A DNA stretch of 64,000 nt from an uncultured Chloroflexia bacterium (GCA_963810095.1 CAWEMM010000015.1:1-64000); one strand, 5' to 3'; shown: positions 14,908-35,504, counted from the stretch's first letter. The notes: generated by a model from the letters alone, not told the origin. Translations and numbers: made by a program.

Positions 14908-15091
14908 TCGGATGTTGTGCCGAAAAACGCCCCGCAACGGCCGCCGGGTGTTCGTCCAGGCATCTGTCACCGGTGGACAGAACGTTCTTGCGCGAAACCG
15001 CACACCGGCTGAGCCTTCGGGCGTCTCCTGTCAATTCGTGGCCGCTGCCGGCCGGCAGCATGGATCACGAAGGGCCTGATCGCAACGTGAG

Positions 15092-15121
15092 TTGCATGAT
15101 TCACAAAGCACCGTGTATAAT
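15092..15121 (+). promoter_or_regulatory. Sigma70 promoter of the helicase operon
   Basis: TTGCAT-18 bp-TATAAT. Confidence 0.65.
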
Positions 15122-15151
15122 TTGGCAAGCAACTCTTTGGAGTCTGTCCGC

Positions 15152-18100
15152 ATGAGCCAACTCGAACAACTGCAACCCAACGCCGCATTGTGCGGGATTC
15201 TGCCCGATGCCCCGGTGACGGTGGTCAGTGTCCAGTGGTTCGGCTCGGAAGCGCTCGAGCTCACGTACAAGACGCCGACCGGCAAGGTGGCGAATGAGCT
15301 GCTGTATCGCCACGACGAGGCACGCCTCGATGTCGTCGAGCACGGCCGCCCCTGGAGCTTTGACGGCGACGGCGCGCTGTTCCGCCTGGTCTCCGAAGCA
15401 CAGCGCATCCGGCTGGCGCACCTCTTCGATCCGGTGCTGGCGGTGCATACCTCCATCGTCGAGCCGCTACCGCACCAGATCACGGCGGTTTACGAGACCA
15501 TGCTGCCGCGCCAGCCCCTGCGCTTCCTGTTGGCGGACGACCCCGGCGCCGGGAAGACCATTATGGCCGGCCTGTTGATGAAGGAGCTGATCGCGCGCGG
15601 CGACCTGCAACGCTGCCTGGTGGTCTGCCCGGGCAGCCTCGCCGAGCAGTGGCAAGATGAGCTTTACCGCCGTTTCCACCTGCCCTTTGAGATCCTCACC
15701 AACGACAAGCTGGAGGCGGCCCCCTTCGGGCCGGCAACTGGTTCCTGGAGACCAACCTGGTAATCGCCCGGCTCGACAAGCTCGCCCGTAACGAAGATGT
15801 GCAGCAGAAGCTTCAGGCGCCCGATGGCCGTTGGGATCTGATTGTCTGCGATGAAGCGCATAAAATGTCGGCCTCGGTTTTCGGCGGCGAGCTCAAGTAC
15901 ACCAAACGTTACCGGCTGGGCCAACTGCTCTCGACGCTCACGCGGCACTTCCTGTTGATGACGGCGACGCCGCACAACGGCAAGGAAGAGGACTTTCAGC
16001 TCTTCATGGCGCTGCTCGACGGCGACCGCTTCGAGGGCCGTTTCCGCGACGGCGTGCACGTGACCGACGTTTCGGATCTGATGCGCCGCATGGTGAAGGA
16101 GCGGCTGCTCAAGTTCGATGGCACGCCGCTCTTCCCGGAGCGCATCGCTTACACGGTGCCCTACAAGCTCTCGCCGCCCGAAGCCCACCTCTACAAGGCC
16201 GTCACTGACTATGTGCGTGAGGAGTTCAATCGCGCCGAAGCGCTGCAGAACGACAAGCGGGCCGGCACGGTCGGCTTTGCGCTGACGATCCTGCAGCGGC
16301 GGCTGGCTTCCTCACCCGAAGCGATCTACCGTTCGCTGCGCCGCCGCCACGAGCGGCTGGAAAAGCGACTCCGCGAACTTGAACTGCTGCAGCGGGGCGC
16401 GGTGTGGGTATTCGACAGGATTTACAGGATTTACAGGATTTTATTTTCTCCAAAAGTATCGACTTGAATCCTGTTGATCCTGCTAATCCTGTCAAATCTC
16501 TCCTCGGCCCTGAGGACATCGAAGATCTCGAAGAAGCGCCCGAAAACGAGGTTGCCGTCGTCGAGGAGGAGATCCTCGACCAGGCCACGGCCGCGCGCAC
16601 CATTGACGAACTCAAGGCCGAGATCGCCACCCTGAAACACCTGGAAGCGTTGGCCCTCGGCGTCCGGCGCAGCGGCACGGACACCAAATGGCGTGAGCTG
16701 GCCTGCCTGCTCGGCGAGATCTTCACGCCTGCCGCCATAGCCAACCGCCTGGCCGAGGAGCGAGCGACGTACACGCTTGGACAGGATAAACAGGATTTTC
16801 AGGATGAGCACGAAAAACATCCTGTTCATCTTGTCAATCCTGTCCCACATCCGGTCTCCTCGCCCCGGCAGAAGCTGGTGCTCTTCACCGAGCACCGCGA
16901 CACGCTCACCTATCTGGAGAACCGCATCACCACGCTGCTGGGCCGCTACGAGGCCGTGGTCGTGATCCACGGCGGCATGGGCCGCGAGGAGCGCATGAAG
17001 GCGCAAGAGTCCTTCCGCCACGATCCCGAGGTGCAGGTGCTGCTGGCCACCGACGCGGCGGGCGAGGGCATCAACCTCCAGCGCGCCCACCTGATGGTGA
17101 ACTACGATTTGCCGTGGAACCCCAACCGCATCGAGCAGCGCTTCGGCCGCATCCACCGCATCGGCCAGACCGAGGTGTGCCACCTGTGGAACCTGGTGGC
17201 CGAGGAGACCCGCGAAGGCGACGTCTACCGGCGGCTGCTGGAGAAGCTGGAGCAGGCCCGCCAGGCCCTCGGCGGCCAGGTCTTCGACGTGCTGGGCAAG
17301 CTGCAATTCGAGGGCAAGCCCCTGCGCGATCTGCTCATCGAGGCGATCCGTTACGGCGATCAACCCGAGGTGCGCGCCCACCTGACGACCGTGCTGGACC
17401 ACGCGCTGGACCGAGAGCAGTTGCAGAACCTGCTGGAAGAGGGGGCGCTCGCCCACGACGTGATGGACGCCACGCGGGTCTATCGCATCCGGGAGGAGAT
17501 GGAACGCGCCGAGGCCCGCCGCCTGCAACCGCACTACATCGAGTCGTTCTTTCTGGAGGCGTTCAAACGCCTGGGCGGCACGGCCAAACAGCGCGAGCCG
17601 CGTCGTTTCGAGGTGACCCATGTGCCGGCCCTGATTCGGAACCGCGATCGCCTCATCGGCATCGGTGAGCCGGTGCTGCCGCGTTACGAGCGCATCGCCT
17701 TTGAAAAGGAGTTCGTGGCGCCGCCCGGCCAACCACCGGCCGCCTTCGTCTGCCCGGGCCATCCGCTGCTGGACGCGGTGCTCGACCTCACCCTCGAACG
17801 GCAGTGTGATCTGCTCAAGCGCGGCGCGGTGCTGGTAGACGAGCGCGACCCGGGGACGCAGCCCCGCGTCCTCTTCTATCTGGAGCACGCCATCCAGGAC
17901 GCCAGTCTGACACGTAGCAACGAGCGCCGCGTCATCTCCCAGCGGATGCTCTACGTTGAGCTTAGGGCCGACGGTACGGCACGCCACCTGCACTACGCCC
18001 CCTATCTCGACTATCGCCCCCTGGCTGAGGGCGAACCCGGCGTGGACGCGCTCCTCGACCGGGCTGAGTGCGCCTGGATCTCGCGGACGTTGGAACAGCA

Positions 18101-18870
18101 GGTGCAGGGCTACGCCATCGCCCACGTCGTGCCGGAGCATCTGGCCGAAGTGCGTGCCCTCAAGCTGGCGCTGATCGCCAAGACCGAGGCCGCGGTCAAG
18201 GATCGGCTGATCAAGGAGATCACCTACTGGGACCAGCGCGCCGAGCAGCTCAAGCTCCAGGAGCAGGCCGGCAAGCCGAACGCCAGGCTCAACTCGGCGA
18301 GGCGCGCAAGCGTGCCGACGGCTTACAGGGGCGGCTGCAAAAGCGGCTGGAAGAGTTGAAGCTCGAAGCCCAGATCTCGCCGCTGCCGCCCGTGGTGCTG
18401 GGCGGGGTGCTGGTGGTGCCGATGGGGTTGCTCGCGGCCATGGCCAGCACGCAAACAGTGCCGGCGGCCCTGATGGCGGCGCGCCAGGTCGATACGCAGG
18501 CTGCCGCCGCCCACGCTCGGGCTATCGTGATGGCGGTCGAGCGCAGCCTCGGCTTCGAGCCGACCGACCGCGAGTTCGAGCAACTTGGTTACGAATCGAG
18601 AGCCGCGTGCCCGGGACGGGCAAGCTGCGGTTCATCGAGGTGAAGGGGCGCATCACCGGTGCCGAGACCGTGACAGTCACCAAGAACGAGATCCTGTATT
18701 CGTTGAACAAGCCGGACGATTATGTCTTGGCGATTGTCGAGTTCCTGAGCGATAATGAGCACCGGACCCACTACCTGCGCCGGCCCTTCCAACGTGAGCC
18801 GGATTTTGGGGTGACCAGCGTGAATTACGATTTCGCCGGGCTGCTGGCGCGGGCAGAGGCGCCAAGATAA
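15152..18870 (+). CDS. SNF2-family helicase with C-terminal DUF3883/NOV domain (DrmD/RapA-like), multiply frameshifted
   Basis: [66 protein letters not shown]...VTVTKNE. Confidence 0.9.
16410..16497. repeat. Palindromic element inside the helicase CDS (3x CAGGAT ... 3x ATCCTG)
   Basis: gacaggatttacaggatttacaggatt...aatcctgttgatcctgctaatcctgtc; AT-rich within a GC-rich gene. Confidence 0.85.
16779..16845. repeat. Second palindromic element inside the helicase CDS
   Basis: ggacaggataaacaggattttcaggatg...catcctgttcatcttgtcaatcctgtcc. Confidence 0.85.
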
Positions 18871-18895
18871 AGCTCAAACCAAGAGGCAATCCACT

Positions 18896-20104
18896 ATGTT
18901 GAGCCAAGAACAACTCCAAACCATGCTGTTCGAACTGGAGTCCGATCGCGTTGAACGCACTGTGTCTGTCAATAACACCGACAAATTCGGACAGGCCATC
19001 TGCGCCTTCGCAAATGATTTTCCCAATCATCGCCAGCCCGGATACCTCATCGTTGGCGCAAGCGACGACGGGCGCCCCAGCGGTCTTTCTGTCACCGATG
19101 ATTTACTTCAGAACCTCGCCGCGTTGCGCTCCGACGGGAACATTCAACCGCTCCCGGCCATCACGGTGAGCCGACACTCCCTGCCCGGTGGCGATCTGGC
19201 GGTGGTCGAAGTTCTGCCTTCGGATCTGCCCCCTGTGCGCTACAAGGGCAAAGTCTGGATTCGTGTTGGCCCGCGTCGCGCAACCGCCAGCGAGCAAGAG
19301 GAGCGTATTCTCAGCGAGCGACGCATTTCCTACGCCAGGTCTTTCGATGCCCTGCCTTGCCTGGAGAGCACGCTGGCCGATCTCTCCCAGGAACGCTTCT
19401 ATCTTTCCTATTTGCGACGCGCCGTGGCCGAGGAGGTGATCGTCGAGAACCAGCGTCCGTTCAAGCTGCAACTGGCCAGCCTGCGTTTGTTCGATCTCAA
19501 GCAAGATTGTCCCACCCATGCGGGTGTCCTGCTCCTCGCAGATGAGCCTACCTACTACTTGCCGGGGGCTTACGTTCAGTTCGTGCGGTATGCCGGCGGT
19601 GATATGAGCAGTGATGTGATTGATGAAAAGCGGGCGATGGGAGATTTGCACACGATCCTGAAGACCCTCGACCTCCTGATGGATGTCAACTTGCGCCAGT
19701 ACCCTGTGCCGGTGAGCGCGTTGCGTGAGGCTATGATCAGCGACTACCCCAAGGTTGCAGTGCGTGAACTTCTTATCAACGCGATCATGCATCGCAATTA
19801 TCAGTCGAACGCGCCCGTGCGTTTCTACTGGTTCCCCGATCACATCGAGATCAACAACCCAGGCGGGCTTTATGGCGAGGCGTCTCCGGAGAATTTCCCG
19901 TATGCTGTTGGCTATCGCAATCCGGTCATTGCTGAGGCTATCCGCGTCCTGGGGTATACAAATCGCTTTGGACAGGGAGTGCTGCGCGCACGCAAGGCGC
20001 TCGAAATCAACCAGAACTCCGCAGCCAGGTTCACCTTCGATCCGCACTGGTTCTCCGTACGGATCGAAGCCCGTGTCGCCGACGGCGTCCCGGGCCAGGA
20101 ATGA
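18896..20104 (+). CDS. AlbA_2/Schlafen domain + HATPase_c_4 (RecG-C-like) protein
   Basis: ESDRVE, AICAFAND, GYLIVGASDDG, VRELLINAIMHRNY, IEINNPGGL, YRNPVIAE, NRFGQGV. Confidence 0.85.
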   Translation: MLSQEQLQTMLFELESDRVERTVSVNNTDKFGQAICAFANDFPNHRQPGYLIVGASDDGRPSGLSVTDDLLQNLAALRSDGNIQPLPAITVSRHSLPGGDLAVVEVLPSDLPPVRYKGKVWIRVGPRRATASEQEERILSERRISYARSFDALPCLESTLADLSQERFYLSYLRRAVAEEVIVENQRPFKLQLASLRLFDLKQDCPTHAGVLLLADEPTYYLPGAYVQFVRYAGGDMSSDVIDEKRAMGDLHTILKTLDLLMDVNLRQYPVPVSALREAMISDYPKVAVRELLINAIMHRNYQSNAPVRFYWFPDHIEINNPGGLYGEASPENFPYAVGYRNPVIAEAIRVLGYTNRFGQGVLRARKALEINQNSAARFTFDPHWFSVRIEARVADGVPGQE

Positions 20105-20157
20105 CGCATTTAGGCGCCGGCCAGGCTTGGGGCTGCCAGCATCGACTACGCCTGTGT

Positions 20158-20190
20158 AGGCCTTTAGGGCCTGCGAGACCCTAAAGGCCT
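20158..20190. repeat. Intergenic hairpin (REP-like or terminator)
   Basis: AGGCCTTTAGGG-N9-CCCTAAAGGCCT. Confidence 0.6.
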
Positions 20191-20214
20191 GAGGGAACCG
20201 TGAGAGGATCCGCC

Positions 20215-20304
20215 ATGACTAGCAAAGCCAACAGACCACTCCGTTTGACAGCGGTGCATCTTGAGAATTGGCGCAACTTCACGCTGGCCCATGTTGCGCT
20301 GCAA
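20215..20304 (+). pseudogene. N-terminal 30-codon stub of an SMC/AAA_21-type ATPase
   Basis: GAGGA RBS, then MTSKANRPLRLTAVHLENWRNFTLAHVALQ; similarity is lost before the Walker A motif. Confidence 0.6.
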
Positions 20305-20308
20305 CTGG

Positions 20309-20719
20309 CCGAACGGCAAATATGCCGGGCAGGCGCTCACCGACGGCAGCCTGTCGGCGATGCCCGGCACCGACGTCAACGGACCGACCGCGTTGGTGAT
20401 GTCTGCGGCGAAGAGCCAGGATGCCATCAAGTACACCGCAACGCACATGAACATGAAATTCCCGCCCGATCAACTGAAGACGCGCAAGGGCCGGGATAAC
20501 GTGCTGAGGCTCGTCAAGACCTACTTTGACAACGACGGCTATCACATCCAGTTCAATGTCCTGGACACCAACATTCTGAGGGACGCACAGAAGCACCCGG
20601 AAAACTACCGTGACCTCGTGGTCCGGGTAGCCGGTTTCAGTGCCTTCTTCACCAAGCTGGCCCCAGGCGTGCAGGACGAGATCATTGCTCGTACCCTGCA
20701 GAGTTTCGAGCAGGCATAG
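20309..20719 (+). pseudogene. C-terminal glycyl-radical domain of a GRE (5' part missing)
   Basis: TDGSLSAMPGTDVNGPTAL, NMKF, YHIQFNV, AQKHPENYRDLVVRVAGFSAFF..QDEIIART. Confidence 0.9.
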
Positions 20720-20730
20720 GACATCGCGGA

Positions 20731-20767
20731 TCCGGTGCGGCGTGGCCCTGCGTCACGCCGCACCGGA
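20731..20767 (+). terminator. Strong hairpin after the GRE stop
   Basis: TCCGGTGCGGCGTG...CACGCCGCACCGGA, 14-bp stem. Confidence 0.6.
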
Positions 20768-20881
20768 AGTCCCTTGCTGAGCGCCCACGCGCGTTTGGCA
20801 CGCAATACTACAAAGACAGAACTGAACGCGTTAACCGATTGTGAATCGAAAAGCCCAATCGACTAGCTGGAAAGGTGCAAT

Positions 20882-22126
20882 ATGATTACACATGTTGGAC
20901 ATGGAGGCATCCTCAGACGCATTGGCATCAATGTGGGTGCCGGATACGTTCCCGGAATAAATGCTGTGATTACAGGAGCAGCCCAGGCAGCTGGCCTCAT
21001 GGGATGGGAAATTCTCGGCATCCGCGATGGATTTGAGGGCTTGCTGCACCCTGATCGCTACCCTGAGGGCGGACTGATTACCCTCAGCCCGCAACTGATC
21101 ACGGACCTCAACGCCTTCGAAGGAGGTATCCTTGGCCAGTCGCCCAGGGTCGATCCATTTCATGTCGCCACCGTAAATCAAGCTAATGAGGTGGAGGAAG
21201 TGGACGTTTCAGATGAAATTCTGAAACGGTTGAAGGAAGAAAATATCGATGCATTGATCTCAGTCGTAGGCGGCCGTGGGCTGGGTATTCTCCATAAGCT
21301 CCATCGCAAAGGGCTCCATACGGTGTGCATTCCAAAATCGATTGAGAACGACATAGCCGCTACTTCGATATCCTTTGGGTTCAACAGCGCCCTCAGCTTT
21401 ACCATCGAAATGCTGATGCGTGCCAAACAAGCGGCCAAGTCGGCCCGCAAAATTGCCGTAGTGGAGGTCATTGGAGCCCAGGCAGGATGGTTGGCGCTGC
21501 AGGCCGGCATAGCCGTTTCTGCCGATGCGGTACTGCTGCCCGAAATTCAGTGCAATCTTAACCTGTTGGCCCAAAGGTTGGAGGAAAAGATTTCAAGCAG
21601 GAGACCCTACGGGTTGGTGATCGTGGCTGAAGGCGCGAAACTCCGCAAAAAACCTCTACAAGAGGAAATCACATCTCCCCATCAAGCGGTTCTAACCCCC
21701 CAACATCGAGCGGCCCTATCCCTCAAAGCCTCTCTACCGCCACAGGCATTGGGTGAGGCAAGCGAGCAGGTCATAGTCCCGCCAGATAAGGCAGCCGAGA
21801 CAGTGGCAAACGAGCTCCGGTTGCTGTTAGCCATGGAACCCTATCCGCTCGTTGTCGGACCTTGGGCGAGGGGGGGAGACCCTACTGCCGTGGACCTTCA
21901 ACTGGGAATGGCATACGGGGCCGGGGCGATTCAGGCGCTGAAAAGCTCCAAGAATGGCGTAATGGTTTCTTTTGTTCCGCCACAAATTGCATACGTTCCG
22001 CTGGCAGAAACAATCGATACAGTCAGAACGGTGCCTGCTGACTGTGAATTTGTAAAGATCGCCGAATCGCTTGGGATTTATTTGGGGAAATTCACTGCGA
22101 AAGACGGAATGCAGTCAGACCATTGA
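20882..22126 (+). CDS. 6-phosphofructokinase-family protein with degenerate active site (copy 1)
   Basis: PGINAVI, GIRDGFEGL, GGILG, PKSIEND, FGFNSA, VAEGA, ARGG; GGD motifs absent. Confidence 0.8.
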   Translation: MITHVGHGGILRRIGINVGAGYVPGINAVITGAAQAAGLMGWEILGIRDGFEGLLHPDRYPEGGLITLSPQLITDLNAFEGGILGQSPRVDPFHVATVNQANEVEEVDVSDEILKRLKEENIDALISVVGGRGLGILHKLHRKGLHTVCIPKSIENDIAATSISFGFNSALSFTIEMLMRAKQAAKSARKIAVVEVIGAQAGWLALQAGIAVSADAVLLPEIQCNLNLLAQRLEEKISSRRPYGLVIVAEGAKLRKKPLQEEITSPHQAVLTPQHRAALSLKASLPPQALGEASEQVIVPPDKAAETVANELRLLLAMEPYPLVVGPWARGGDPTAVDLQLGMAYGAGAIQALKSSKNGVMVSFVPPQIAYVPLAETIDTVRTVPADCEFVKIAESLGIYLGKFTAKDGMQSDH

Positions 22127-22171
22127 GATTCCAAACGATTAGCCCCGTAGCCATCAATCATGGAGGATGCT

Positions 22172-23293
22172 ATGAAAAACACTAGCGAATCAATAGACGT
22201 CTACGAACGCCTGGCTAATGTGCTAGATGCAACGCCTCAAGGCTTTCCCAGGTTGAAATCCGGGGTGGAAATCAAACTGCTCAAACTGGTGTTCACTCCT
22301 GACGAGGTCTCGCTTGCAAGTTACTTAACCACAACGTACGAGTACCCAGCCGATATCGCCACGCGGGCCGGCATTGATGTGGAAGATGCAATAGTGATAC
22401 TGAGTGGTCTGATATCCCGCAAACTTGTCCGCATGCAGGGACCTCCCTCTTATCCCGGCATGCCGGCTCCACCTCCCGGAAAAGATTCGCTGTTCCGGCT
22501 TGGCCCTTTCATGATTGGCTGGTACGAAGCCTGCATGCGCGTGGAAGGCAAGGAATTTGCCGAGCTTTTCCACCAATATATGGTTGAGGGCGGTAGTGAA
22601 AGAATCCTTGCTCCACGGCCCGGCGTGCTGGGCGTTGTCCCGGTGCGGGGCTCGCTAAAGCCGGAATTGATGGCTACGATGGAACCACACCTGGACATCG
22701 ACGCTCATCTAAAGCGGCACGAACGATTTTTGGTGATGGACTGCGTGTGCAAAAGGGAAATGGAGGCTTTGGGGAAAGACGACAGCCGCTATCCGCTGAA
22801 ACGCTGCGGATTTTTAGGGCTACCGGCTAGCGTCCCACTCGGAGAACATGTGCTCAGCCGGGAGGAGGCTGACCAGCTCCTTCGAAAGCTCGAAAAGATG
22901 GGGCATGTCAGTAATGCAGCCTACGGATTTCAAATGGGCGCCGAAAGTCCACAGTATGTCGGCGGCTGCAACTGCGACCGTTATGCCTGTGGGGTATTTA
23001 GCAACCACTACCCGTCGCAGGCATCAAACTACCGCTCGGTGATTGATCCGGAAAAGTGCATCTCTTGTGGCGTGTGTATCGATCGCTGCCCCGTGAGCGC
23101 CATCGCGGCGGATGAGGATTACAAGTCGAAGGTGGAACGGGCTAAGTGTATCGGCTGTGGCGTGTGTGTGATTGGATGTAATGATGAAGCCATTGAATTG
23201 GTACCTGTATCGAAAGAGGAGTGGTTCCATACGCCAGCGAGCATGGAGGAATGGGAAGAGTTGCGCGCGCAGACTCTGGCAGCGACGAAATAA
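22172..23293 (+). CDS. 4Fe-4S dicluster ferredoxin-domain protein with N-terminal wHTH-like region
   Basis: CISCGVCIDRCP and CIGCGVCVIGC, plus CVCK, C and CNC ligands; N-terminal PQGFPRLKSGVEIKLLKLVFTPDE. Confidence 0.85.
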   Translation: MKNTSESIDVYERLANVLDATPQGFPRLKSGVEIKLLKLVFTPDEVSLASYLTTTYEYPADIATRAGIDVEDAIVILSGLISRKLVRMQGPPSYPGMPAPPPGKDSLFRLGPFMIGWYEACMRVEGKEFAELFHQYMVEGGSERILAPRPGVLGVVPVRGSLKPELMATMEPHLDIDAHLKRHERFLVMDCVCKREMEALGKDDSRYPLKRCGFLGLPASVPLGEHVLSREEADQLLRKLEKMGHVSNAAYGFQMGAESPQYVGGCNCDRYACGVFSNHYPSQASNYRSVIDPEKCISCGVCIDRCPVSAIAADEDYKSKVERAKCIGCGVCVIGCNDEAIELVPVSKEEWFHTPASMEEWEELRAQTLAATK

Positions 23294-23308
23294 TCCGTGG
23301 CCCGACAG

Positions 23309-23372
23309 ATCCCGCCGGATCAGCTAAAACACGGAAGCGCCGCGAAGCCGTTCCTAATCTGGTTAGGACCAA
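23309..23372 (+). pseudogene. Short relic of a second GRE C-terminal domain
   Basis: IPPDQL(K)TRKRREAVPNLVRT versus FPPDQLKTRKGRDNVLRLVKT at 20459-20521. Confidence 0.65.
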
Positions 23373-23462
23373 GTACGGGAAGTGCCTTGATGAGCACCAC
23401 AATCTGTAAGGAGGCAAGGCTATGAATACGGATGCAAGATGCAGGAATAAGGGAGGTTTACT

Positions 23463-24640
23463 ATGACCACTGAAACAGGTCATGCCAGTTCCCCAAGACG
23501 GATCGGCATCATGGTGGGCGCCGGCTTCGTCCCCGGCATGAACGCTGTGGTGACCGGCGCGGCGCTGGCCGCGGGCAATCTGGGATGGGAACTCGTGGGC
23601 ATCCGCGATGGCTTTGACGGGCTCCTGTATCCGGATCGCTACCCGGAAGGCGGGCTGGTAACCCTCTCCCCCGACTGGTCGAGAACCTGGATCCCGCGGC
23701 CGGGGGCATCCTTGGCCAATCGGGCCGCGTCGACCCGTTTCATGTCCGCACGATTGACGAAGACGACATGGCTCAGGAAGTGGACATGTCCGACGAGGTG
23801 CTGAGCGCACTGCAAGCGCACCAGATCGATGCGCTGATATCCGTGGTCGGCGGCCGCGGGTTGAGCATCCTCTACAGAATGCATTGCAAGGGGCTGGCCA
23901 GCGTGTGCATCCCACGCTCGATCGAGAACGACGTCGCGGCCACCTCCGTGGCCTTTGGCTTCAACACCGCACTCAGCTTCACGATCGAGATGCTCGACCG
24001 GGCGCGGGTGGCCGCCCAGTCTGCCCGCAAGATCGCGGTCGTGGAGGTCCTGGGCGAGCAGGCCGGCTGGATTGCGCTGCAGGCCGGCATCGCTGCGGGC
24101 GCCGATGCCATCTTGATCCCCGAAATTCCCTGTGACCTCGAGCGGGTGGCCGCGCGGCTGAAGCAAAAGATGTCGCGCCAGCGGCCGTACGGGCTGGTGG
24201 TGGTGGCCGAAGGGGCCAGGCTGGTCGATAACCACAATGGCCACGCGCAGGAGCCATCCTCGCTGAAGGCTTCCCTCTCGCCGTTGGCTACCGGCGATGC
24301 CAGCGACCACGTTATCCAGCGCTCGGGCCGGGCCGCCGAGACCGTCGCCAGCAAGCTGCAACTGCTGATCCCTGAGGAAACCCAGGCGCTCGTCGTAGGC
24401 CTGTGGGCCAGGGGCGGCGCTCCGACCGCCGTCGACCGGCAACTCGGGCAAGCCTATGGCGCCGGCGCAGTACGTGCCATAAACGACGGCCAGAACGGGG
24501 TGATGGTGGCGTTCGTGCCGCCCGACATCAGGTTCGTGCCGCTGGCGCAGGCGATCAACAAGATCAGGACCGTGCCCGTTGACAGCGAATTCGTGCAGAT
24601 TGCGCGCTCGCTGGGCATCAGTCTGGGGAGGGCGCAATGA
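23463..24640 (+). CDS. 6-phosphofructokinase-family protein with degenerate active site (copy 2; frameshift near 23680)
   Basis: Clear paralogue of 20882-22126; stop overlaps the activase start (ATGA). Confidence 0.8.
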
Positions 24641-25599
24641 TCACCCCATCCACCAAATCCGGCGAACTGACCGGCGTCGTTCTCAACATTCAGCGCTATT
24701 GCAGCCATGACGGTCCGGGCATCCGCACCAACATCTTTCTCAAGGGCTGCTCGCTGCGCTGCAAATGGTGCTCCAATCCCGAAAGCATCCAGCCCAAGCC
24801 GGAGCTGGCCTACGCCCCCAACATGTGCACGGGCAAGGAAGCGTGCGGGCTCTGTCTGAAGCAGCCCTTCCCTGAAGGCGCTTTCTACGTCGTCGAGGGC
24901 GACGACGACAAGGTCAGGGTCAACTGGGATCTGGCTTCGGACGTCGGCGAGGAGTTGGTTTCGCTCTGCCCGACCCACGCGCTGGACATGTACGGCAAGC
25001 GCATGACCGTCGGCGAAGTGCTGGCCGAGGTGGAGAAGGACGAATCGATCTACCGCAATTCCGGCGGCGGCATGACCCTCAGCGGCGGCGAGTGCCAGCT
25101 ACAACCCGACTTCGCCGCAGCCCTGCTCAAGGGCGCCCATGAGCGCGGCATCAACACCGCCATCGAGACGGCCTTCAACGTGCCCTGGTCTTTCTGTGAA
25201 AAGGTGCTGCCGCACGTCGATACCGTGCTCCATGACCACAAGCTGACCATCTCGGAGCGGCACAAGAAGTGGACCGCCGTGGGCAACGAGCGCATCCTGG
25301 CGAACATGAAGAAGGCCTACGAGACCTTTCCCAATGCAGACTTCATTGCCCGCACGCCGCTGATTCCCGGCGTCAACGCCGACGAGGAGCACATCCGGGC
25401 CGTCCTGGCCTTCATCCGCCCCTACAAGAACGTGATCGACTATGAGATCTTGCCCTATCACCGCTTTGGGCTGGGCAAGTACGAGAGCCTGGGCGTGGTG
25501 TATGAGCTGGACGACTACAAGACGCCGTCAGACGAGGTAGTCCAGCGATTCCGGGCCATCATCGACGAGGCCTTCGGCCGTACAGCCGAGAGTCAGTGA
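24637..25599 (+). CDS. Glycyl-radical enzyme activating enzyme (radical SAM)
   Basis: HDGPGIRT, KGCSLRCKWCSNPES, GGGMTLSGGE, LPYHRFGLGKY. Confidence 0.95.
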   Translation: MITPSTKSGELTGVVLNIQRYCSHDGPGIRTNIFLKGCSLRCKWCSNPESIQPKPELAYAPNMCTGKEACGLCLKQPFPEGAFYVVEGDDDKVRVNWDLASDVGEELVSLCPTHALDMYGKRMTVGEVLAEVEKDESIYRNSGGGMTLSGGECQLQPDFAAALLKGAHERGINTAIETAFNVPWSFCEKVLPHVDTVLHDHKLTISERHKKWTAVGNERILANMKKAYETFPNADFIARTPLIPGVNADEEHIRAVLAFIRPYKNVIDYEILPYHRFGLGKYESLGVVYELDDYKTPSDEVVQRFRAIIDEAFGRTAESQ

Positions 25600-25776: not shown

Positions 25777-26163
25777 ATGCGAACGCCAATGAAGGACCTG
25801 CCAGCCCACAAGAGCCCTTTCAGCGACAAGGTGGAGGGAGTTGAGATTTTTTCCGAGGATTGGGGTGACATGACCTGTGGCCTCTACCGTTACCCTAAGG
25901 GGGTGGATTTCACGCCGTATTTCGTTGGCATGCCGGACGATTTGTGCCCGATCCCTCACTATGGGTACTGCCTCACGGGCGCCTTTCATGTCCGCTACAA
26001 GGACGGAACGGAGGAAGTCGTGAGAGCTGGGGAGCTGTTCTACTTGCCCCCGCCCCATACGTTTTGGATAGATGAAGATACCGAGATGATCATGTTCAGC
26101 CCGCTCAAATTGATGAGCGAGGGCACGAAACTCGCACAGAGCAATCTGGGTTCAAAGGAGTAA
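25777..26163 (+). CDS. Cupin-domain protein
   Basis: DDLCPIPHYGY...EEVVRAGELFYLPPPH. Confidence 0.75.
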   Translation: MRTPMKDLPAHKSPFSDKVEGVEIFSEDWGDMTCGLYRYPKGVDFTPYFVGMPDDLCPIPHYGYCLTGAFHVRYKDGTEEVVRAGELFYLPPPHTFWIDEDTEMIMFSPLKLMSEGTKLAQSNLGSKE

Positions 26164-26694: not shown

Positions 26695-27741
26695 ATGAAG
26701 GCTATAACTGTCGAACCCAAGACCCCAGGATCGGCGCGCTACGAAGAGATGCCGGAGCCCGATCCACGCGAGGGCTCGGTCCTGCTTGAAGCGATCGCGG
26801 TCGGCGTCTGCGGAACCGACGCCGAGATCGTGTCGGGGAAGTACGGCTGGGCGCCGCCAGGACAGAAGCGCCTGGTGCTGGGACATGAATCTCTGGGCCG
26901 CGTCATCGATCCGGGCGACAGCAAGGTGTTCAAGCCGGGCGACCTGGTCGTCGGGATCGTGCGGCGCCCGGATCCGGTGCCCTGCCCCAACTGCGCGGTG
27001 GGCGAGTGGGATATGTGCACCAACGGCCAGTACACCGAGCGGGGAATCAAGGAGATCCACGGCTTCATGTCGGAACGCTGGCGGAGCGAGTCGGAATACC
27101 TGATCAAGGTTGACCCATCGCTGGGTATCCTGGGCGTGCTGCTCGAGCCGATGACGGTGATAACGAAGGCCATCGAACAGGTCTTCCTTGCGGGTCAACG
27201 CGCCTATTGGGAACCCAAGACCGTGCTGGTGACGGGCGCGGGCCCGATCGGGTTGCTGGCCGCGCTGCGTCTGAGCGTGCGCAACCTGCAGGTGCACGTG
27301 CTCGATCGGGCTGAGACCGGCCTGAAGCCAGAGCTCGTACGCGCCCTGGGGGCCACGTATCATACCGGAAGCGTCATGGATCTCGATTTTGCTCCCGATA
27401 TCATCATCGAGTGCACAGGTGTGGGCTCGGTGATCGTGGACTCGATTCAGAAGGTCAACGCCGGCGGGATCATCTGCCTTACCGGCGTCGGCGCAGGTGG
27501 CGCCAAAGGCCTGACCGTAGCTGACGTCGCGGCGTCGGCGGTGCTGAAGAACAACTTGATTGTCGGCAGCGTGAATGCGAACAAGCGTCACTGGTACAAA
27601 GCGGGCCAGAACCTGGCCCAATCGGACCGCAACTGGCTTAGCCGGATGATCACACGCTGTGAGCGGCCAGAGGATTTCCAAGAGGCTCTCGAGAAACGAC
27701 CGGACGATGTGAAGACGATCATCCAGTTTAGTGCGGTCTAG
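26695..27741 (+). CDS. Zn-dependent glucose 1-dehydrogenase (MDR family)
   Basis: GVCGTD, LGHESLG, VRRP, ERGI, VLLEP, GAGPIG, VGSVNA. Confidence 0.88.
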   Translation: MKAITVEPKTPGSARYEEMPEPDPREGSVLLEAIAVGVCGTDAEIVSGKYGWAPPGQKRLVLGHESLGRVIDPGDSKVFKPGDLVVGIVRRPDPVPCPNCAVGEWDMCTNGQYTERGIKEIHGFMSERWRSESEYLIKVDPSLGILGVLLEPMTVITKAIEQVFLAGQRAYWEPKTVLVTGAGPIGLLAALRLSVRNLQVHVLDRAETGLKPELVRALGATYHTGSVMDLDFAPDIIIECTGVGSVIVDSIQKVNAGGIICLTGVGAGGAKGLTVADVAASAVLKNNLIVGSVNANKRHWYKAGQNLAQSDRNWLSRMITRCERPEDFQEALEKRPDDVKTIIQFSAV

Positions 27742-27771: not shown

Positions 27772-29467
27772 ATGAAGGTGATTATCGTGGGTGGCGTGGC
27801 CGGCGGGGCATCCTGCGCCGCGCGACTGCGCAGATTAGATGAGACAGCCGAAATCCTGATGGTGGAACGCGGACCGTACGTGTCGTACGCGAACTGCGGA
27901 CTGCCGTACCATGTCGGGGGTGTGATTGCACAGGAGTCGAGCCTCCTGGTCGCGACGGAGCAGACGTTCCGCGAGCAATTCGCCATCGACGTGCGGACGC
28001 GCTGCGAAGTCGTGGGCATCTCGCCCGAACAGAAGACTGTGGACCTCAAGAACCACGTGACCGGGGAGGTGACGACCGAGAAGTACGACAAGCTCGTCCT
28101 GTCGCCCGGCGCCGCGCCGATCCGCCCGCCGCTGCCCGGCATCGACCTACCGGGAATATTCTCCGTGCGAACCGTGCCGGATGCCCGGACGATCCGCGAG
28201 TGGCTGGACCGGGATGCGGCAGATCGATCCGGTATGAACGCGTACACGGGCTACCAGACCGTGACGCGACCGCAGCGCGCGGTGGTAGTCGGCGGCGGCT
28301 TCATCGGCCTCGAAATGGTGGAGAACTTCGTCCACCGTGGGCTCGAAGTGACGCTGGTCGAGCGGCTCAACCAGGTGATGCCCCCGCTCGATCCGGAAAT
28401 GGCGCGGCTCGTCGAGCGTTACATGGTCAGGCACGGCGTCCACCTCGAACTCAATGACGGGGTGGCTTCCTTCCAGGAGGCAACCGATGGCTCGCTGGAA
28501 GTTATCACCACTTCGGGCAAGTGCCTGCCCGCGGACCTTGTCATCCTTGCGATCGGCGTTCGTCCCGAAACGGCGCTGGCGAAGATGGCTGGCATCAAGC
28601 TCGGGCAGCGCGGCGGCATGCGTGTCGACGAGCAGATGCGTACGAACGTCCCGGATATCTTTGCAGTCGGCGATGCGGTCGAGGTCAAAGACTTTGTGAC
28701 CGGCCAATGGTCTCTCATCGCACTGGCGGGACCGGCGAACCGGCAAGGGCGCATTGCGGCCGAGGTGATTGCCGGCCGCGACTCGCGCTTCCGCGGCACC
28801 CAGGGCACCTCCATTTGCCAGATCTTCGAGGCCGCGATTGCCTCGACCGGCGCCAGCGAGAAGCTACTGAATCAGCTCGGCGATACGGATTACGAGAAGA
28901 TCTATCTCTACCCTAATTCGCATGCGGGCTACTATCCGGGCGCCAAGTACATCGCGATGAAGGTCATCTTCCGGAAGTCCGACGGCAAGCTCCTGGGCGC
29001 GCAGGTGCTCGGTGAGGATGGCGTCCCGAAGCGGATCGACTCTTTCGCGATGGCGCTCCAGGCTGGCTTCACGATTTACGACCTCGAGGAGTCCGAGCTA
29101 TGCTACGCACCGCCTTTCGGCAGCGCAAAAGATCCCGTCAACTTCGCCGGGATGGTCGCGGCCGACGTGCTGCGCGGGGATATGCCAATCAGCCACTGGG
29201 CTTCACTGAACGGGGAGTTCCTCCTCGACGTGCGCAATCCCACCGAGCTGGAGGTCGAGTCTGTGCCGGGTGCGCTCAACATCCCGCTGCACGAGTTACG
29301 CGGCTCGGCTCGGCGAGCTGCCGCGCGACCGCGAGATCCTCGTCTTCTGCCGCTCGGGGCAGCGCGCCTACTATGCGACGCGCATCCTGCTGCAGAACGG
29401 GTTCGCAGCCCGGAATGTGGCTGGAGGCATGTTGTCGCGCTCGCATCTCGCGGGTGGATTGAGCTAG
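27772..29467 (+). CDS. CoA-disulfide reductase / persulfide reductase with C-terminal rhodanese (frameshift near 29305)
   Basis: GGVAGGASCAARLRR, SYANCGLPY, GGGFIGLE, HAGYYPGA, YAPPFGSAKDPVN, FCRSGQR. Confidence 0.92.
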
Positions 29468-29481
29468 AAAGGAAAGATCCA

Positions 29482-29571
29482 ATGACTTTAGGACCCGTCG
29501 ACTTCATCGCACTGGAGTCCCCGGCATCCGGTTCAAGGGTGAGATCCTGCCCGAGCTGCTCGATATCGTAA
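29482..29571 (+). pseudogene. DUF6325 N-terminal fragment
   Basis: MTLGPVDFIALE.PG.RFKGEILPELLDIV* matches the start of the 35652 gene. Confidence 0.7.
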
Positions 29572-32725: not shown

Positions 32726-32741
32726 CGAGCAGGAGTTGACA

Positions 32742-35504
32742 ATGTCGACAGAACAGGCAGATACGGGCACTGGGTTCGTGGACGTAACCGAGCAGAAGCG
32801 GCTGAACGATGCCCGGGAGAAGGGCATCCCCTGGAAGAAGTGGGGACCCTATCTGAGTGAGCGCCAGTGGGGCACAGTCCGGGAAGACTACAGCCAGGAT
32901 GGCAATGCGTGGGCCTACTTCAGTCACGACCAAGCCCGCTCGCGCGCCTACCGCTGGGGCGAGGACGGTCTAGGCGGGTTCTCGGACGACGAGCAGAGGC
33001 TCTGCTTCGCTCTTGCGCTGTGGAACGAGCACGATCCAATCCTCAAGGAACGCGCCTTCGGCCTGACCAACAGCGAGGGCAATCGCGGCGAGGACGTCAA
33101 GGAGTATTACTTCTACCTCGACTCGACCCCGACGCACTCCTACATGAAGTACCTGTACAAGTACCCGCAGCGGGCGTTCCCCTACGGCGACCTGATCGAA
33201 ACGAACCAACGCCGGTCGCGGCAGGAGTTCGAGTACGAGCTGATCGACACGGGCATCTTCGACGATAACCGGTACTTCGACGTCTTTCTGGAATACGCCA
33301 AGGCCGGCCCGGACGACATCCTGATCCAGGTCACCGTCCACAACCGCGGCCCGGAAGCGGCCCGGCTGCAACTGCTCCCGACGCTCTGGTTCCGCAACAC
33401 CTGGTCGTGGAAACAGGGGACGCCCAAACCAAGCCTGCGGCAGATTGAGGGTGCCATTCGGGCCACGCATCCCGGCCTGGGCGAATACACGCTGTACTGT
33501 GACGGCGCGACAGAACTGCTTTTCACCGAGAACGAGAGCAACTTCCAGCGCCTCTGGGATCAGCCGAACCCGTCGCCCTGGGTCAAGGACGCGTTCCACA
33601 GGTATGTCGTAGCGGGTGAGAGCGGCGCAGTCAACCCTGCGAAGAGCGGCACCAAGGCGGCGGCCCGCTACATCCTCGATGTGCCCGCCGGCGGCTCGTC
33701 CGTGGTGCGCCTCCGCCTGTCTGCGAGCGAGCAGGAGAAGCCGTTCGGTGACTTCGACGCTACGCTCGCCGCTCGCCTGGCCGACGCCGACGAGTTCTAC
33801 CAGCGGATCACGGCCCGATCGCTGAGCGAGGATGAGCGGCGGGTGCACCGGCAGGCGCTCGCCGGCATGCTGTGGGGCAAGCAGTACTACCTCTTCGACG
33901 TGGACACGTGGCTCAAGGAGCACGACGCGCACCCACTCCTTGGTGGCATGCATAAGGTACGGAACGCCGAATGGTTCCACATGTTCAACGGCGACGTCAT
34001 CTCCATGCCCGACAAGTGGGAATATCCCTGGTACGCGGCCTGGGACCTGGCCTTCCACACGATTGCGCTCGCGCTCGTCGATTTCGACTTCGCCAAGGAG
34101 CAGCTCCTGCTGATGCTGCGCAGCCTCTACTTCCACCCGAACGGCCAGATCCCGGCCTACGAGTGGAACTTCAGCGACGTGAATCCGCCCGTGCACGCCT
34201 GGGCCACCCTCTACCTCTTCAAGGTCGAGCAGACCCTGGGCCGCGAGGACGTCAAGTTCCTCGAGCGGGCGTACAACGGCCTGAAGCTCAACTTCAACTG
34301 GTGGGTGAACCGCAAGGACCCACAGGGGCGCAACGTCTTCGCCGGGGGTTTCCTGGGCCTCGACAACATCGGCGTCTTCGACCGCAGCGCGCAGCTGCCC
34401 ACCGGCGGATCGCTGGAGCAGGCCGACGGCACCGCCTGGATGGCCTTCTACTGCCAGAACATGATCGAAATGGCCCTTATCCTGGCCGAGCACGACCCGC
34501 GCTACGAGGAAGACGCCTTCAACTTCCTGCAGCACTTCATGTGGATCGCGTACGCCATGGACCGCATCGGCGATAACCATGATGAAATGTGGGATGAAGC
34601 GGACGGCTTCTTCTACGATGTCCTGCGCCTGCCCGACGGCTCGGCCACGCGCCTGAAGGTCCGCTCCATGGTGGGGCTGCTCCCGCTGTGCGCGAGCACC
34701 GTGTTCGAGCCGGACTTCACCACCAAGTTCCCAAGGTTGGTGGAGCTGATCAAGCTGTTCAGCGAGCGCTACCCCGAGGTGCTGGCCCAGGTCGCGCCGA
34801 CGCCGGAGGGCTATGTCGGCTACAACGGGCGGCGATCGCTGTCGCCCCTCTCGAAGAAGCGGCTCGAGCGGGTGCTGAGCTACCTCCTGGACGAGAACGA
34901 GTTCTTGAGCCCCTACGGCATTCGGTCGCTCTCCAAGTACCATAAGGACCATCCGTTCATCTTTCATGTCAACGGCCAGGCCCTCGGTGTGTCGTATGTC
35001 CCGGCCGAATCGGACTCGGGCATGTTTGGTGGCAACTCGAACTGGCGAGGACCGGTCTGGATGCCGGTCAACGTGCTCATCGTACGCGGGCTGCTTAACC
35101 TGTACGGCTTCTACGGCGACGACTTCACCGTCGAGTGCCCCACCGGCTCGGGAAACCGCATGACGCTCTTCGAGGTGGCGCACGAAATCTCGCGGCGGCT
35201 GGCCAGCATCTTCCTCAGGGACGACAGCGGACGCCGGCCGGTCTACGGCGGCGCGGCGAAGTTCCAGGAGGACCCGCACTGGCGCGACCATATCCTCTTC
35301 TACGAGTACTTCCATGGTGACAACGGGGCCGGCCTGGGCGCCAGCCACCAGACCGGTTGGACCGGGACCATTGCCCGCTTGCTCGACCTGTTCGGCCGAA
35401 TCGGGCCGTCTGACGTCCTGCTTACGCCGAAGGAACGCGTGGTGGAGCGCCTCATCCGGGAGCAAGTCGGCGGGACAAAAGATGCCAGTGCAGACCGCTC
35501 GTAG
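32742..35504 (+). CDS. GH63 / MGH1-like glucosidase
   Basis: WGPYLSERQWGTVREDYS, MPDKWEYPWYAAWDLAFH, NSNWRGPVW, YEYFHGDNGAGLGASHQTGWT. Confidence 0.92.
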   Translation: MSTEQADTGTGFVDVTEQKRLNDAREKGIPWKKWGPYLSERQWGTVREDYSQDGNAWAYFSHDQARSRAYRWGEDGLGGFSDDEQRLCFALALWNEHDPILKERAFGLTNSEGNRGEDVKEYYFYLDSTPTHSYMKYLYKYPQRAFPYGDLIETNQRRSRQEFEYELIDTGIFDDNRYFDVFLEYAKAGPDDILIQVTVHNRGPEAARLQLLPTLWFRNTWSWKQGTPKPSLRQIEGAIRATHPGLGEYTLYCDGATELLFTENESNFQRLWDQPNPSPWVKDAFHRYVVAGESGAVNPAKSGTKAAARYILDVPAGGSSVVRLRLSASEQEKPFGDFDATLAARLADADEFYQRITARSLSEDERRVHRQALAGMLWGKQYYLFDVDTWLKEHDAHPLLGGMHKVRNAEWFHMFNGDVISMPDKWEYPWYAAWDLAFHTIALALVDFDFAKEQLLLMLRSLYFHPNGQIPAYEWNFSDVNPPVHAWATLYLFKVEQTLGREDVKFLERAYNGLKLNFNWWVNRKDPQGRNVFAGGFLGLDNIGVFDRSAQLPTGGSLEQADGTAWMAFYCQNMIEMALILAEHDPRYEEDAFNFLQHFMWIAYAMDRIGDNHDEMWDEADGFFYDVLRLPDGSATRLKVRSMVGLLPLCASTVFEPDFTTKFPRLVELIKLFSERYPEVLAQVAPTPEGYVGYNGRRSLSPLSKKRLERVLSYLLDENEFLSPYGIRSLSKYHKDHPFIFHVNGQALGVSYVPAESDSGMFGGNSNWRGPVWMPVNVLIVRGLLNLYGFYGDDFTVECPTGSGNRMTLFEVAHEISRRLASIFLRDDSGRRPVYGGAAKFQEDPHWRDHILFYEYFHGDNGAGLGASHQTGWTGTIARLLDLFGRIGPSDVLLTPKERVVERLIREQVGGTKDASADRS

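Follow-up and report, generated by a model that had tools for sequence, protein, structure and literature searches.

The window analysed here, a 64,000-nucleotide stretch of DNA from an uncultured Chloroflexia bacterium (GCA_963810095.1 CAWEMM010000015.1:1-64000), carries a glycyl radical enzyme (GRE) locus in which two genes for phosphofructokinase (PFK)-like proteins, hereafter PFKLs, are found with genes for a GRE activase and for a ferredoxin-like protein with a winged helix, hereafter FdWH. PFKLs have kept the PFK fold and lost the kinase residues, share a single origin, evolve under purifying selection, and are linked by gene position to the activase and FdWH. We infer, with a probability of roughly 0.5, that PFKLs do not act as kinases but as partners or regulatory subunits of the iron-sulfur (Fe-S) proteins that install the glycyl radical, an interpretation in which physical binding, electron delivery and gating by a ligand would be involved. 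The main features of the locus are as follows.

20306-20719, plus strand: C-terminal remnant of a GRE, with a Gly_radical domain (Pfam PF01228, 7.9e-30)
20624-20638, plus strand: glycyl loop RVAGF (Gly codon at 20633-20635)
20882-22126, plus strand: PFKL1 (copy 1, class B), 414 amino acids (Pfam PFK PF00365, 2.2e-58)
22160-23293, plus strand: FdWH, 377 amino acids, winged helix, Cys-rich region and 2x[4Fe-4S] (Fer4 Pfam families), between PFKL1 and PFKL2
23463-24640, plus strand: PFKL2 (copy 2, class A), in two frames, with a Pfam PFK match on each piece
24637-25599, plus strand: GRE activase (radical S-adenosylmethionine (SAM) protein; TIGR02494, 307.9 bits versus a cut-off of 174.35)

The original prediction, made from the sequence of the window, had placed a pair of PFK genes between a GRE and its activase. 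The gene positions agree with this description, but the GRE is only a C-terminal remnant, FdWH had been overlooked, and PFKL2 is frameshifted. The predicted ATGA, in which the PFKL2 stop codon overlaps the activase ATG, is present.

PFKLs keep the PFK fold and lack kinase residues

Both window copies belong to the PF00365 family. PFKL1 scores 198.3 bits over profile positions 1-277 (cut-off 30.9), and the two pieces of PFKL2 score 32.6 and 175.3 bits. The structural model of PFKL1, with a predicted local distance difference test (pLDDT) value of 79.1, yields target-normalised TM values of 0.89-0.91 to 1pfk, 1zxx and 4a3s, and an insert at residues 258-296 is modelled as disordered. Motifs were compared by using HMMER alignments to solved PFKs (1zxx, 4i4i) and a MAFFT table of 34 PFKLs and five canonical PFK sequences (domains) of the window's genome. 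Residue numbers follow E. coli PfkA.

In PFKLs, GGD-APG is replaced by AGY/F-VPG, GGDGS by GG(R/K/Q)G, which is without the Asp (GGRGL in the window copies), P(G/K)TIDND by P(K/R)SIEN(D/E), MGR by (I/L/Q/P)G(A/E) (IGA and LGE in the window copies), and GHxQRGG by G(P/S/L)W(A/V)RGG (G(P/L)WARGG in the window copies), and the position of R243 is occupied by Y or F. Across all three PFKL classes, the kinase residues D12, D103, T125, D127, R171, R243 and H249 become Y/F, R/K/Q, S, E, A/E, Y/F and P/S/L, respectively, whereas the canonical PFKs of the same genome retain them. Residues resembling R72, D129 and R252 and a K or R at position 162 are retained in PFKLs, and E222 is retained in classes B and C only. 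For the window copies, the original prediction had named the changes at GGDAPG, GGDGS, TID, MGR and H249, and these are borne out by the alignments; the R72-, E222- and R252-like positions that it listed as kept in these copies are likewise found in alignments to solved PFKs and to those of the genome itself.

The nearest canonical relatives are the 'mixed' group III of PfkA proteins (TIGR02483; GGGDxPGLN, PKTIDND, EVMGRxAGW), which have the same fold and domain order as PFKLs (TM about 0.9). Lys or Arg occupies position 124 of PFKLs, as in the PKTIDND type of PfkA. PFKLs differ from PfkA in that the GGD Asp12, the GGDG Asp, R171, R243 and H249 are replaced and D127 is changed to E, and in carrying an extra insert with a conserved L-x-A-S-L-S-P stretch. 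Identity to the 375-residue PFK of the same genome is approximately 35%. Every NCBIfam PFK model scores PFKLs below its cut-off (the best being TIGR02483 with 227.4 versus 430.55 and NF002872 with 211.6 versus 253), and an intact class A orthologue is also below (252.1 versus 430.55 and 235.5 versus 253, respectively). PFKLs therefore have neither the model score nor the catalytic residues by which a functional 6-phosphofructokinase is recognised, in keeping with the non-glycolytic role that had been proposed. By sequence and models, PFKLs have kept the PFK fold and lost the residues for Mg-ATP binding and for phosphorylation of fructose 6-phosphate.

PFKLs form one clade under purifying selection

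Among the 150 best representatives of clusters formed at 50% identity, the motif reads [ST]-x-E-N in 27 and [ST]-x-D-N in 90; the other 33, most of which are fragments, allowed no scoring. A maximum-likelihood tree was built with 55 rows, comprising 33 PFKLs from the loci described below (full-length sequences only, plus the C-terminal part of window PFKL2), seven divergent PFKL representatives, and 15 canonical rows hand-picked from the 90 [ST]-x-D-N representatives. In this tree, the 40 PFKL rows are split from the 15 canonical rows by a long branch with support of 100/100. The placement in a PfkA phylogeny that had been suggested as a check thus gives a distinct PFKL clade with a single origin.

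Three paralogous classes can be distinguished, of which PFKL-A lies directly upstream of the activase gene and PFKL-B always just upstream of the FdWH gene, with PFKL-C as the third. All 17 copies located just before FdWH genes group together (100/98), and this clade is nested among the copies preceding activase genes. Because the FdWH-linked clade is nested among activase-linked rows, with canonical PFKs as the outgroup, the activase-linked state is the older. Class A (window copy 2) accordingly came first, and class B (window copy 1), linked to FdWH, arose from it through duplication.

Pairwise ratios of nonsynonymous to synonymous substitution rates (dN/dS) range from 0.059 to 0.196 for eight class B pairs, from 0.058 to 0.188 for seven class A pairs, and from 0.166 to 0.202 for the C-terminal part of window PFKL2 against three orthologues, giving 0.058-0.202 for the 18 pairs overall. 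These values point to purifying selection on PFKLs. A contrary reading, that the PFK-like genes are functionless, decaying relics, could draw on the loss of catalytic residues and on the frameshifts in window copy 2 and in a further copy on contig C9 of the same assembly. However, it has hardly any probability given dN/dS values of 0.06-0.20, the same replacements kept across classes, and intact copies conserved in many genomes and metagenomes. The original prediction had favoured selection over decay on the basis of replacements shared by the two window copies, and the recurrence of these replacements in three paralogous classes, together with the dN/dS values, sustains it.

PFKL genes are paired with genes for two kinds of Fe-S protein

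A scan of genomes, with one genome per species, yielded 17 loci. All 17 contain genes for both an activase and FdWH, and 16 contain a GRE gene, the seventeenth being cut by the end of its contig. The usual gene order is GRE, PFKL-A, activase, and then one or two PFKL-FdWH pairs. Metagenomes were scanned with the PFKL alignment, and the best 79 loci of 580 confirmed-relative stretches were considered. PFKL-type residues are present in 15 of these best 79, and an activase gene accompanies them in 14 (the remaining locus is 1.2 kb long) and a GRE gene in 10. None of the other 64 loci, which have canonical residues, carries a gene for a GRE, activase or FdWH (0/64). The view that these proteins belong with GREs would be undermined if homologues with the PFKL motifs were mostly unlinked to GRE genes; such homologues are instead linked to GRE and activase genes, in contrast with the canonical PFKs from the same scan.

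A PFKL gene directly precedes 17/18 and 13/13 of the activase genes, and 26/27 and 1/2 of the FdWH genes. The PFKL stop codon overlaps the activase start codon or lies at most 13 nucleotides from it in 17/17 loci. The activases that follow class A genes make up a special clade, and class A is translationally coupled to them. The linkage was also assessed from the activase side in 150 other genomes sampled from one family (that of genome G439). Matches to the activase clade (441-661 bits) occur only in the four of these genomes that have PFKL (and in the centre genome), where they lie beside the PFKL genes, and 19 further genomes of the family have ordinary activases scoring no more than 235 bits. 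The pairing of PFKL genes with genes for two kinds of Fe-S protein is tight and recurs across loci.

Separately, one representative of 507 amino acids (P0283) has the C-terminus of a GRE joined to the N-terminal half of a PFKL. It is a fragment, and maybe an artefact of gene calling.

FdWH is a multi-cluster ferredoxin-like protein

FdWH begins with a winged helix, continues with a middle domain rich in Cys and His, and ends in a ferredoxin domain of the 2x[4Fe-4S] type. An alignment of 38 sequences has 14 invariant Cys residues, eight of them in the two ferredoxin motifs and the others at C195, C197, C216, C270, C272 and C277, in addition to three invariant His residues. With a structural model of FdWH (pLDDT 68.5), residues 43-117 match MarR/IclR-type winged-helix regulators (Z 8-9.3 in VIA) and the C-terminus matches PorD-like 2x[4Fe-4S] domains. 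VIA gave winged-helix and ferredoxin-domain matches only, with no structural match for the middle domain; Foldseek returned no match in the PDB at E <= 0.001, and the ESM Atlas returned only 'hypothetical/ferredoxin family' clusters.

PFKL-linked activases occur with at least two types of GRE

The window activase scores above the TIGR02494 cut-off and carries the CX3CX2C radical SAM motif, in which C38, C42 and C45 are invariant. In the alignment, only four auxiliary-cluster Cys residues of the window-lineage activase are invariant (C64, C70, C73 and C111), whereas the HpsG-linked activases of loci L042 and L001 keep eight. It is a matter of speculation that a cluster was lost from the activase and is supplied in trans by FdWH.

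The named model that fits the window activase best is HpsH (NF048010), at 342.7 bits and thus below the cut-off of 430. The basal PFKL-activase pairs adjoin HpsG-type GREs, with scores of 1012.7 bits in L042 against a cut-off of 1000, and of 927 in L045 and 814 in L044, in which the proteins are cut. PFKL-activase pairs therefore accompany two or more kinds of GRE, namely sulfonate lyases that resemble HpsG and an uncharacterised enzyme, the latter being that of the window lineage, and are not tied to a single substrate. The original prediction had likened the GRE tail of the window to arylacetate decarboxylases. The tail alone does rank indoleacetate decarboxylase first (172.4 bits), but a full-length orthologue scores just 420.3 against a cut-off of 1100 for indoleacetate decarboxylase (NF033718) and 369.2 against 1150 for the HPAD large subunit (NF033715), and higher for HypD (479.9, cut-off 1100) and PFL2 (476.5). 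Because these scores are far below the cut-offs, the window-lineage GRE is a member of no named GRE family. In this unnamed GRE (L001, 4931-7444, and its orthologues), the catalytic Cys aligns to the GCVE loop of HypD, but the loop reads G-A-C-V-G. It is without the Glu of the GCxE loop used by GRE eliminases, which suggests a different chemistry.

The system thus resembles the HpsG/HpsH sulfolyase system for 2,3-dihydroxypropane-1-sulfonate (DHPS) in that the window activase fits the HpsH model best and basal PFKL-activase pairs sit with HpsG-type GREs, next to SBF transporter and SDR genes. It is unlike HpsG/HpsH in that the window activase is below the HpsH cut-off and the window-lineage GRE is of the unnamed family with the G-A-C-V-G loop. 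We know of no PFK-like gene described in the published hpsGH clusters, and literature searches found none. At 14932-20386, L001 also contains a second GRE of the HpsG type (990.6 bits versus 1000), accompanied by genes for an SDR, an activase and an SBF transporter.

In at least 12 loci (for example, L009 2138-2677 and L040 4718-5257), the gene for the unnamed GRE is immediately preceded by a conserved open reading frame (ORF) of about 180 amino acids that belongs to no Pfam family. This ORF, of which L040 has two copies, could encode an additional subunit or a regulator; it is absent from the window, where this region is missing. In L016, a gene resembling the D component of 2-hydroxyglutaryl-CoA dehydratase (PF06050; 4085-5386) lies between the GRE and PFKL-A genes.

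Proposed role of PFKLs and competing interpretations

In the interpretation we favour, PFKLs would be dedicated components of certain GRE systems. Each PFKL would bind the neighbouring Fe-S protein in a stoichiometric complex, PFKL-A the activase and PFKL-B FdWH, and would hold or gate the electron supply, possibly on binding an anionic metabolite. Such gating would in turn determine whether the glycyl radical is installed. Since PFKs form oligomers, a hetero-oligomer of PFKL-A and PFKL-B could bring FdWH and the activase together. A more elaborate version, which we offer tentatively and which may well prove wrong, holds that pseudoenzymes with a PFK fold make up a novel type of accessory subunit in which the A/B hetero-oligomer docks the activase, with its one auxiliary cluster, to the multi-cluster FdWH. 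Ligand-gated electron delivery would then time radical installation on sulfonate-cleaving GREs and on the Glu-less GRE of unknown chemistry. The 'sensor, scaffold or reactivation factor' of the original prediction would be narrowed to a partner of the activase and of the ferredoxin-like protein.

Several observations weigh against a partner role. Functional positions survive in PFKLs, which still have residues like R72, D129 and R252 and a K or R at position 162 and, in classes B and C, E222, and the T125S and D127E changes are conservative, such that some altered catalysis may be possible. The linkage counts, except those of the activase-side test, rest on loci that were fetched through PFKL itself. 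In the second locus of L001, just 24 residues of a PFKL remain in front of the HpsG-type activase, and so this locus may do without PFKL or may receive it in trans. No fusion of PFKL to an activase or ferredoxin was found among proteins of 726-2070 amino acids at E <= 1e-40, although this is weak evidence. Distant relatives of FdWH (200-290 bits) that are without PFKL and have unrelated neighbours occur in 14 of 400 other genomes sampled from the window's phylum, and the winged helix of FdWH could mean DNA binding rather than electron transfer.

This last point bears on the proposal that PFKLs are metabolite sensors, with PFKL-B or PFKL-C and FdWH together forming a ligand- and redox-sensing transcription regulator of the operon and PFKL-A gating the activase allosterically. 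Stand-alone FdWH relatives have varied neighbours, as regulators do, residues 43-117 match MarR/IclR-type winged helices, and alignments suggest that the effector-site pattern of PfkA is conserved in part (R154-, E187- and K213-like positions). We nevertheless consider this proposal unlikely because the loci already have LuxR-type or sigma-54 regulators, small helical domains often reach Z values of 8-9, and six invariant Cys residues on top of a 2x[4Fe-4S] domain would be elaborate for a repressor. PFKLs might instead still be enzymes, namely phosphotransferases or kinases that have been retuned to a sulfonated or unusual pathway substrate and that use Glu in place of Asp127 as the base, in the manner of the sulfofructose kinase SqiK. 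This is quite improbable in our judgement. A PF00365 sulfofructose kinase is indeed described in the accessible text of PMC9594981, the loci have a sulfonate and carbohydrate context, and the conservative T125S and D127E changes and the kept D129-, R72- and R252-like positions are compatible with catalysis. However, none of the three classes retains the GGDG Asp, R171, R243 or H249, PFKLs fall short of the cut-off in every PFK model, the pairing persists across GRE types with C3 and unknown substrates, and a kinase of the pathway would have no use for two or three paralogues that are each tied to the gene for an Fe-S protein.

Comparison with known systems

The alpha subunit of the pyrophosphate (PPi)-dependent phosphofructokinase of plants is a PfkA-family protein that is no longer catalytic and serves as the regulatory member of a hetero-oligomer. 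In contrast to the role proposed for PFKLs, its partner is the catalytic beta subunit of this PFK in glycolysis rather than an Fe-S protein from a radical enzyme system. SqiK, the sulfofructose kinase of the sulfo-EMP2 pathway, is like PFKLs a PF00365 protein recruited to organosulfonate metabolism according to the accessible text of PMC9594981. It is, however, described as an active kinase paired with an aldolase, whereas PFKLs are without kinase residues and are paired with a radical SAM activase or a ferredoxin-like protein, a comparison made by description only.

In its accessible text, a June 2026 review of GREs (PMC13450708) lists accessory subunits only for HPAD (gamma), BSS (beta, gamma) and MASS (beta, gamma, delta), calls the role of those with Fe-S clusters enigmatic, and does not contain the string 'phosphofructo'. 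Like PFKLs and FdWH, these subunits are extra proteins encoded with a GRE and its activase, and some have Fe-S clusters, possibly for radical installation (PMC13450708, accessible text). The subunits described there are nevertheless small proteins resembling high-potential iron-sulfur proteins (HiPIPs) or rubredoxins that bind the catalytic subunit of the GRE, whereas PFKLs have a PFK fold of 380-415 amino acids and genes linked to those for the activase and FdWH. FdWH (377 amino acids, with a winged helix and bacterial-ferredoxin-type 2x[4Fe-4S]) is unlike the subunits listed in that text in both size and fold. A 2026 review of sulfoquinovose names, in its accessible portion, only IseG, HpsG and HpfG as known GREs of sulfonate breakdown, and 'phosphofructokinase' occurs nowhere in its text. 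Full-text literature searches, with subscription journals and supplements outside their reach, found no paper that ties a PfkA-like gene to a GRE or activase. The PFKL family is apparently undescribed, and the finding looks new at the level of the family.

Outside E. coli, the low-potential electron source of GRE activases and the control of activation are poorly understood. One disabled PFK whose gene is paired with that of the activase, and a second paired with a multi-cluster ferredoxin-like gene, provide two specific candidates that lend themselves to expression and testing. The name '6-phosphofructokinase' is probably wrong for hundreds of database entries that bear it. The finding also points to an uncharacterised GRE family with a Cys loop that is without the eliminase Glu.

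State of the window locus

The window system is incomplete, with a GRE stub fused to a fragment of a foreign gene and a frameshifted copy 2, and each defect may be real decay or an assembly error. The sequence to the left of the stub is as follows.

20200-20305, plus strand: 5' fragment (35 codons, GTG start) of an unrelated ATPase-like gene, ending at the join with the GRE remnant

A Pfam search with this 35-residue fragment gave no match. A GRE orthologue of 838 amino acids matches the window only over its residues 673-821 (20309-20749, 87%), and its residues 1-672 have no counterpart there. DNA likeness to the GRE genes of relatives starts at approximately 20306, so that the remnant corresponds to about the last 140 residues. 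A catalytic subunit would have a PFL-like barrel with a Cys loop and a Gly_radical domain, and only the latter is present. The stub (136-152 amino acids) is similar in size to the autonomous glycyl radical cofactor GrcA/YfiD, and both have a glycyl loop. This identity was rejected on scores of 71.8, 50.6 and 44.2 bits versus cut-offs of 158, 145 and 170 for GrcA, GrcA2 and GrcA3, respectively. Unlike GrcA/YfiD, the stub aligns to the end of full-length GREs and begins at the join with a foreign gene fragment.

The source assembly (6.1 Mb, 16 contigs, 88.5% complete) contains no match to the PFL-like domain (PF02901), yet it holds two GRE tails with Gly_radical domains, two activases and three PFKLs. 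The second tail opens contig C9 at about GRE residue 657, 11 codons from the start of the window stub, and the two tails are 78% identical in DNA. The C9 locus (L028, 1-13100) comprises this tail, a PFKL-A gene with a frame break near 1500, an activase gene with a frame break, and genes for a cupin, PPK2, a P-type ATPase, SulP and GH13/CBM48; it has no FdWH and no class B PFKL.

Data from sequencing runs were compared by contigs rather than raw reads, and the best-matching run contained 0.26 of the words of the window. A public contig from run X3 is identical to 20159-20305 and departs from the window exactly after 20305; on translation by hand, the left ORF goes on in frame from there into a Walker-A-like G-P-N stretch. 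Contigs of relatives hold normal GRE sequence to the left of 20332. Among the pieces listed from sequencing runs, which are contigs only and short, none bridges the 20305/20306 join, and these pieces thus speak neither for nor against it.

The window contig has numerous frame breaks, affecting genes for an HmaA helicase (three ORFs), a CoA-disulfide-reductase-like protein and a sulfatase as well as PFKL2, and they also occur in related loci from metagenome-assembled genomes (MAGs). A DNA alignment with three orthologues indicates that PFKL2 is split over two frames by a 1-nucleotide deletion beside a C5 run near 23667. The gene order of the window (GRE, PFKL-B, FdWH, PFKL-A, activase) is found in 0/17 related genome loci, in all of which the activase gene is upstream of the FdWH-linked PFKL gene. 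GC content also differs by module, at 0.538 for PFKL1, 0.544 for FdWH, 0.662 for PFKL2, 0.617 for the activase and 0.63-0.64 for the flanks. The closest relatives of PFKL1 and FdWH form one set (80-93%), and those of PFKL2 and the activase another (75-85%). On these grounds, the window locus looks mosaic.

The join and the frameshifts could be artefacts of a long-read metagenome bin in which two intact GRE operons had near-identical 5' GRE parts that were collapsed and lost. The near coincidence of the C9 break point with the start of the window stub, the deficit of PFL-like domains relative to GRE tails, activases and PFKLs, the divergence of the public contig exactly at 20305 after an identical left flank, the lack of any listed piece spanning the join, and the high number of frame breaks, both along the window contig and in loci of related MAGs, are all in keeping with such an origin. 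The collapsed upstream repeat is nevertheless an assumption because the GRE tails are only 78% identical in DNA. A gene order unlike that of all 17 relatives and the GC contrast (0.54 versus 0.62-0.66) fit a real rearrangement, only contigs could be compared rather than raw reads, and most pieces are unlisted. We see even odds for this artefact, and a real deletion or rearrangement and an assembly chimera at a collapsed repeat come out about equally probable.

Genomic neighbourhood and distribution

Downstream of the activase gene, the window continues with the following genes.

25777-26163, plus strand: weak cupin match (Pfam), among the downstream genes common to related loci
26695-27741, plus strand: GlcDH-like Zn-dehydrogenase (Pfam), common to related loci
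27772-29571, plus strand: CoA-disulfide-reductase-like protein with a rhodanese domain, with a frame change near 29302 relative to an orthologue of 73% identity
30557-32725, plus strand: GH13/CBM48 glycosidase (Pfam)
32736-35504, plus strand: GH63/MGH1-like glycosidase (Pfam), syntenic with related loci and 60% identical to its L002 neighbour

Downstream genes of the window have 72% and 73% identity to neighbours in L002/L009 (tblastn). Across the related loci and the window, neighbouring genes encode SBF and SulP transporters, a rhodanese-domain CoA-disulfide-reductase-like protein, a GlcDH-like dehydrogenase, GH63-like and GH13 glycosidases, sulfatases, SDRs, and LuxR-type or sigma-54 regulators. 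This context points to a likely place of PFKL systems in the metabolism of organosulfonates or sulfated carbohydrates.

No PFKL was found in the 40 nearest genomes (G033 has one match of 44% identity), in 400 other genomes sampled from the window's phylum, where all 10 matches have canonical motifs, or in 300 other genomes sampled from the class of G439; PFKL is present in four of the 150 from the family of G439. Genes of the system also occur in metagenomes from sediment, wetland, soil and wastewater. The distribution is patchy, as seen in samples that are not proof of absence, and together with the GC contrast it suggests lateral spread.

The sulfatase gene of the window consists of two overlapping ORFs (38691-39587 and 39340-40587), indicating a frame break. 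Upstream of the GRE stub is a stretch resembling a defence island. This includes an HmaA-type SNF2 helicase at 15092-18359 (PADLOC PDLC00659; 298, 360 and 768 bits), split into three consecutive ORFs by a frameshift or assembly error. A gene with Schlafen AlbA_2 and HATPase_c_4 domains (Pfam) at 18896-20104 has weak PADLOC matches to Argonaute-associated proteins and is followed by the truncated ATPase-like ORF at 20200.

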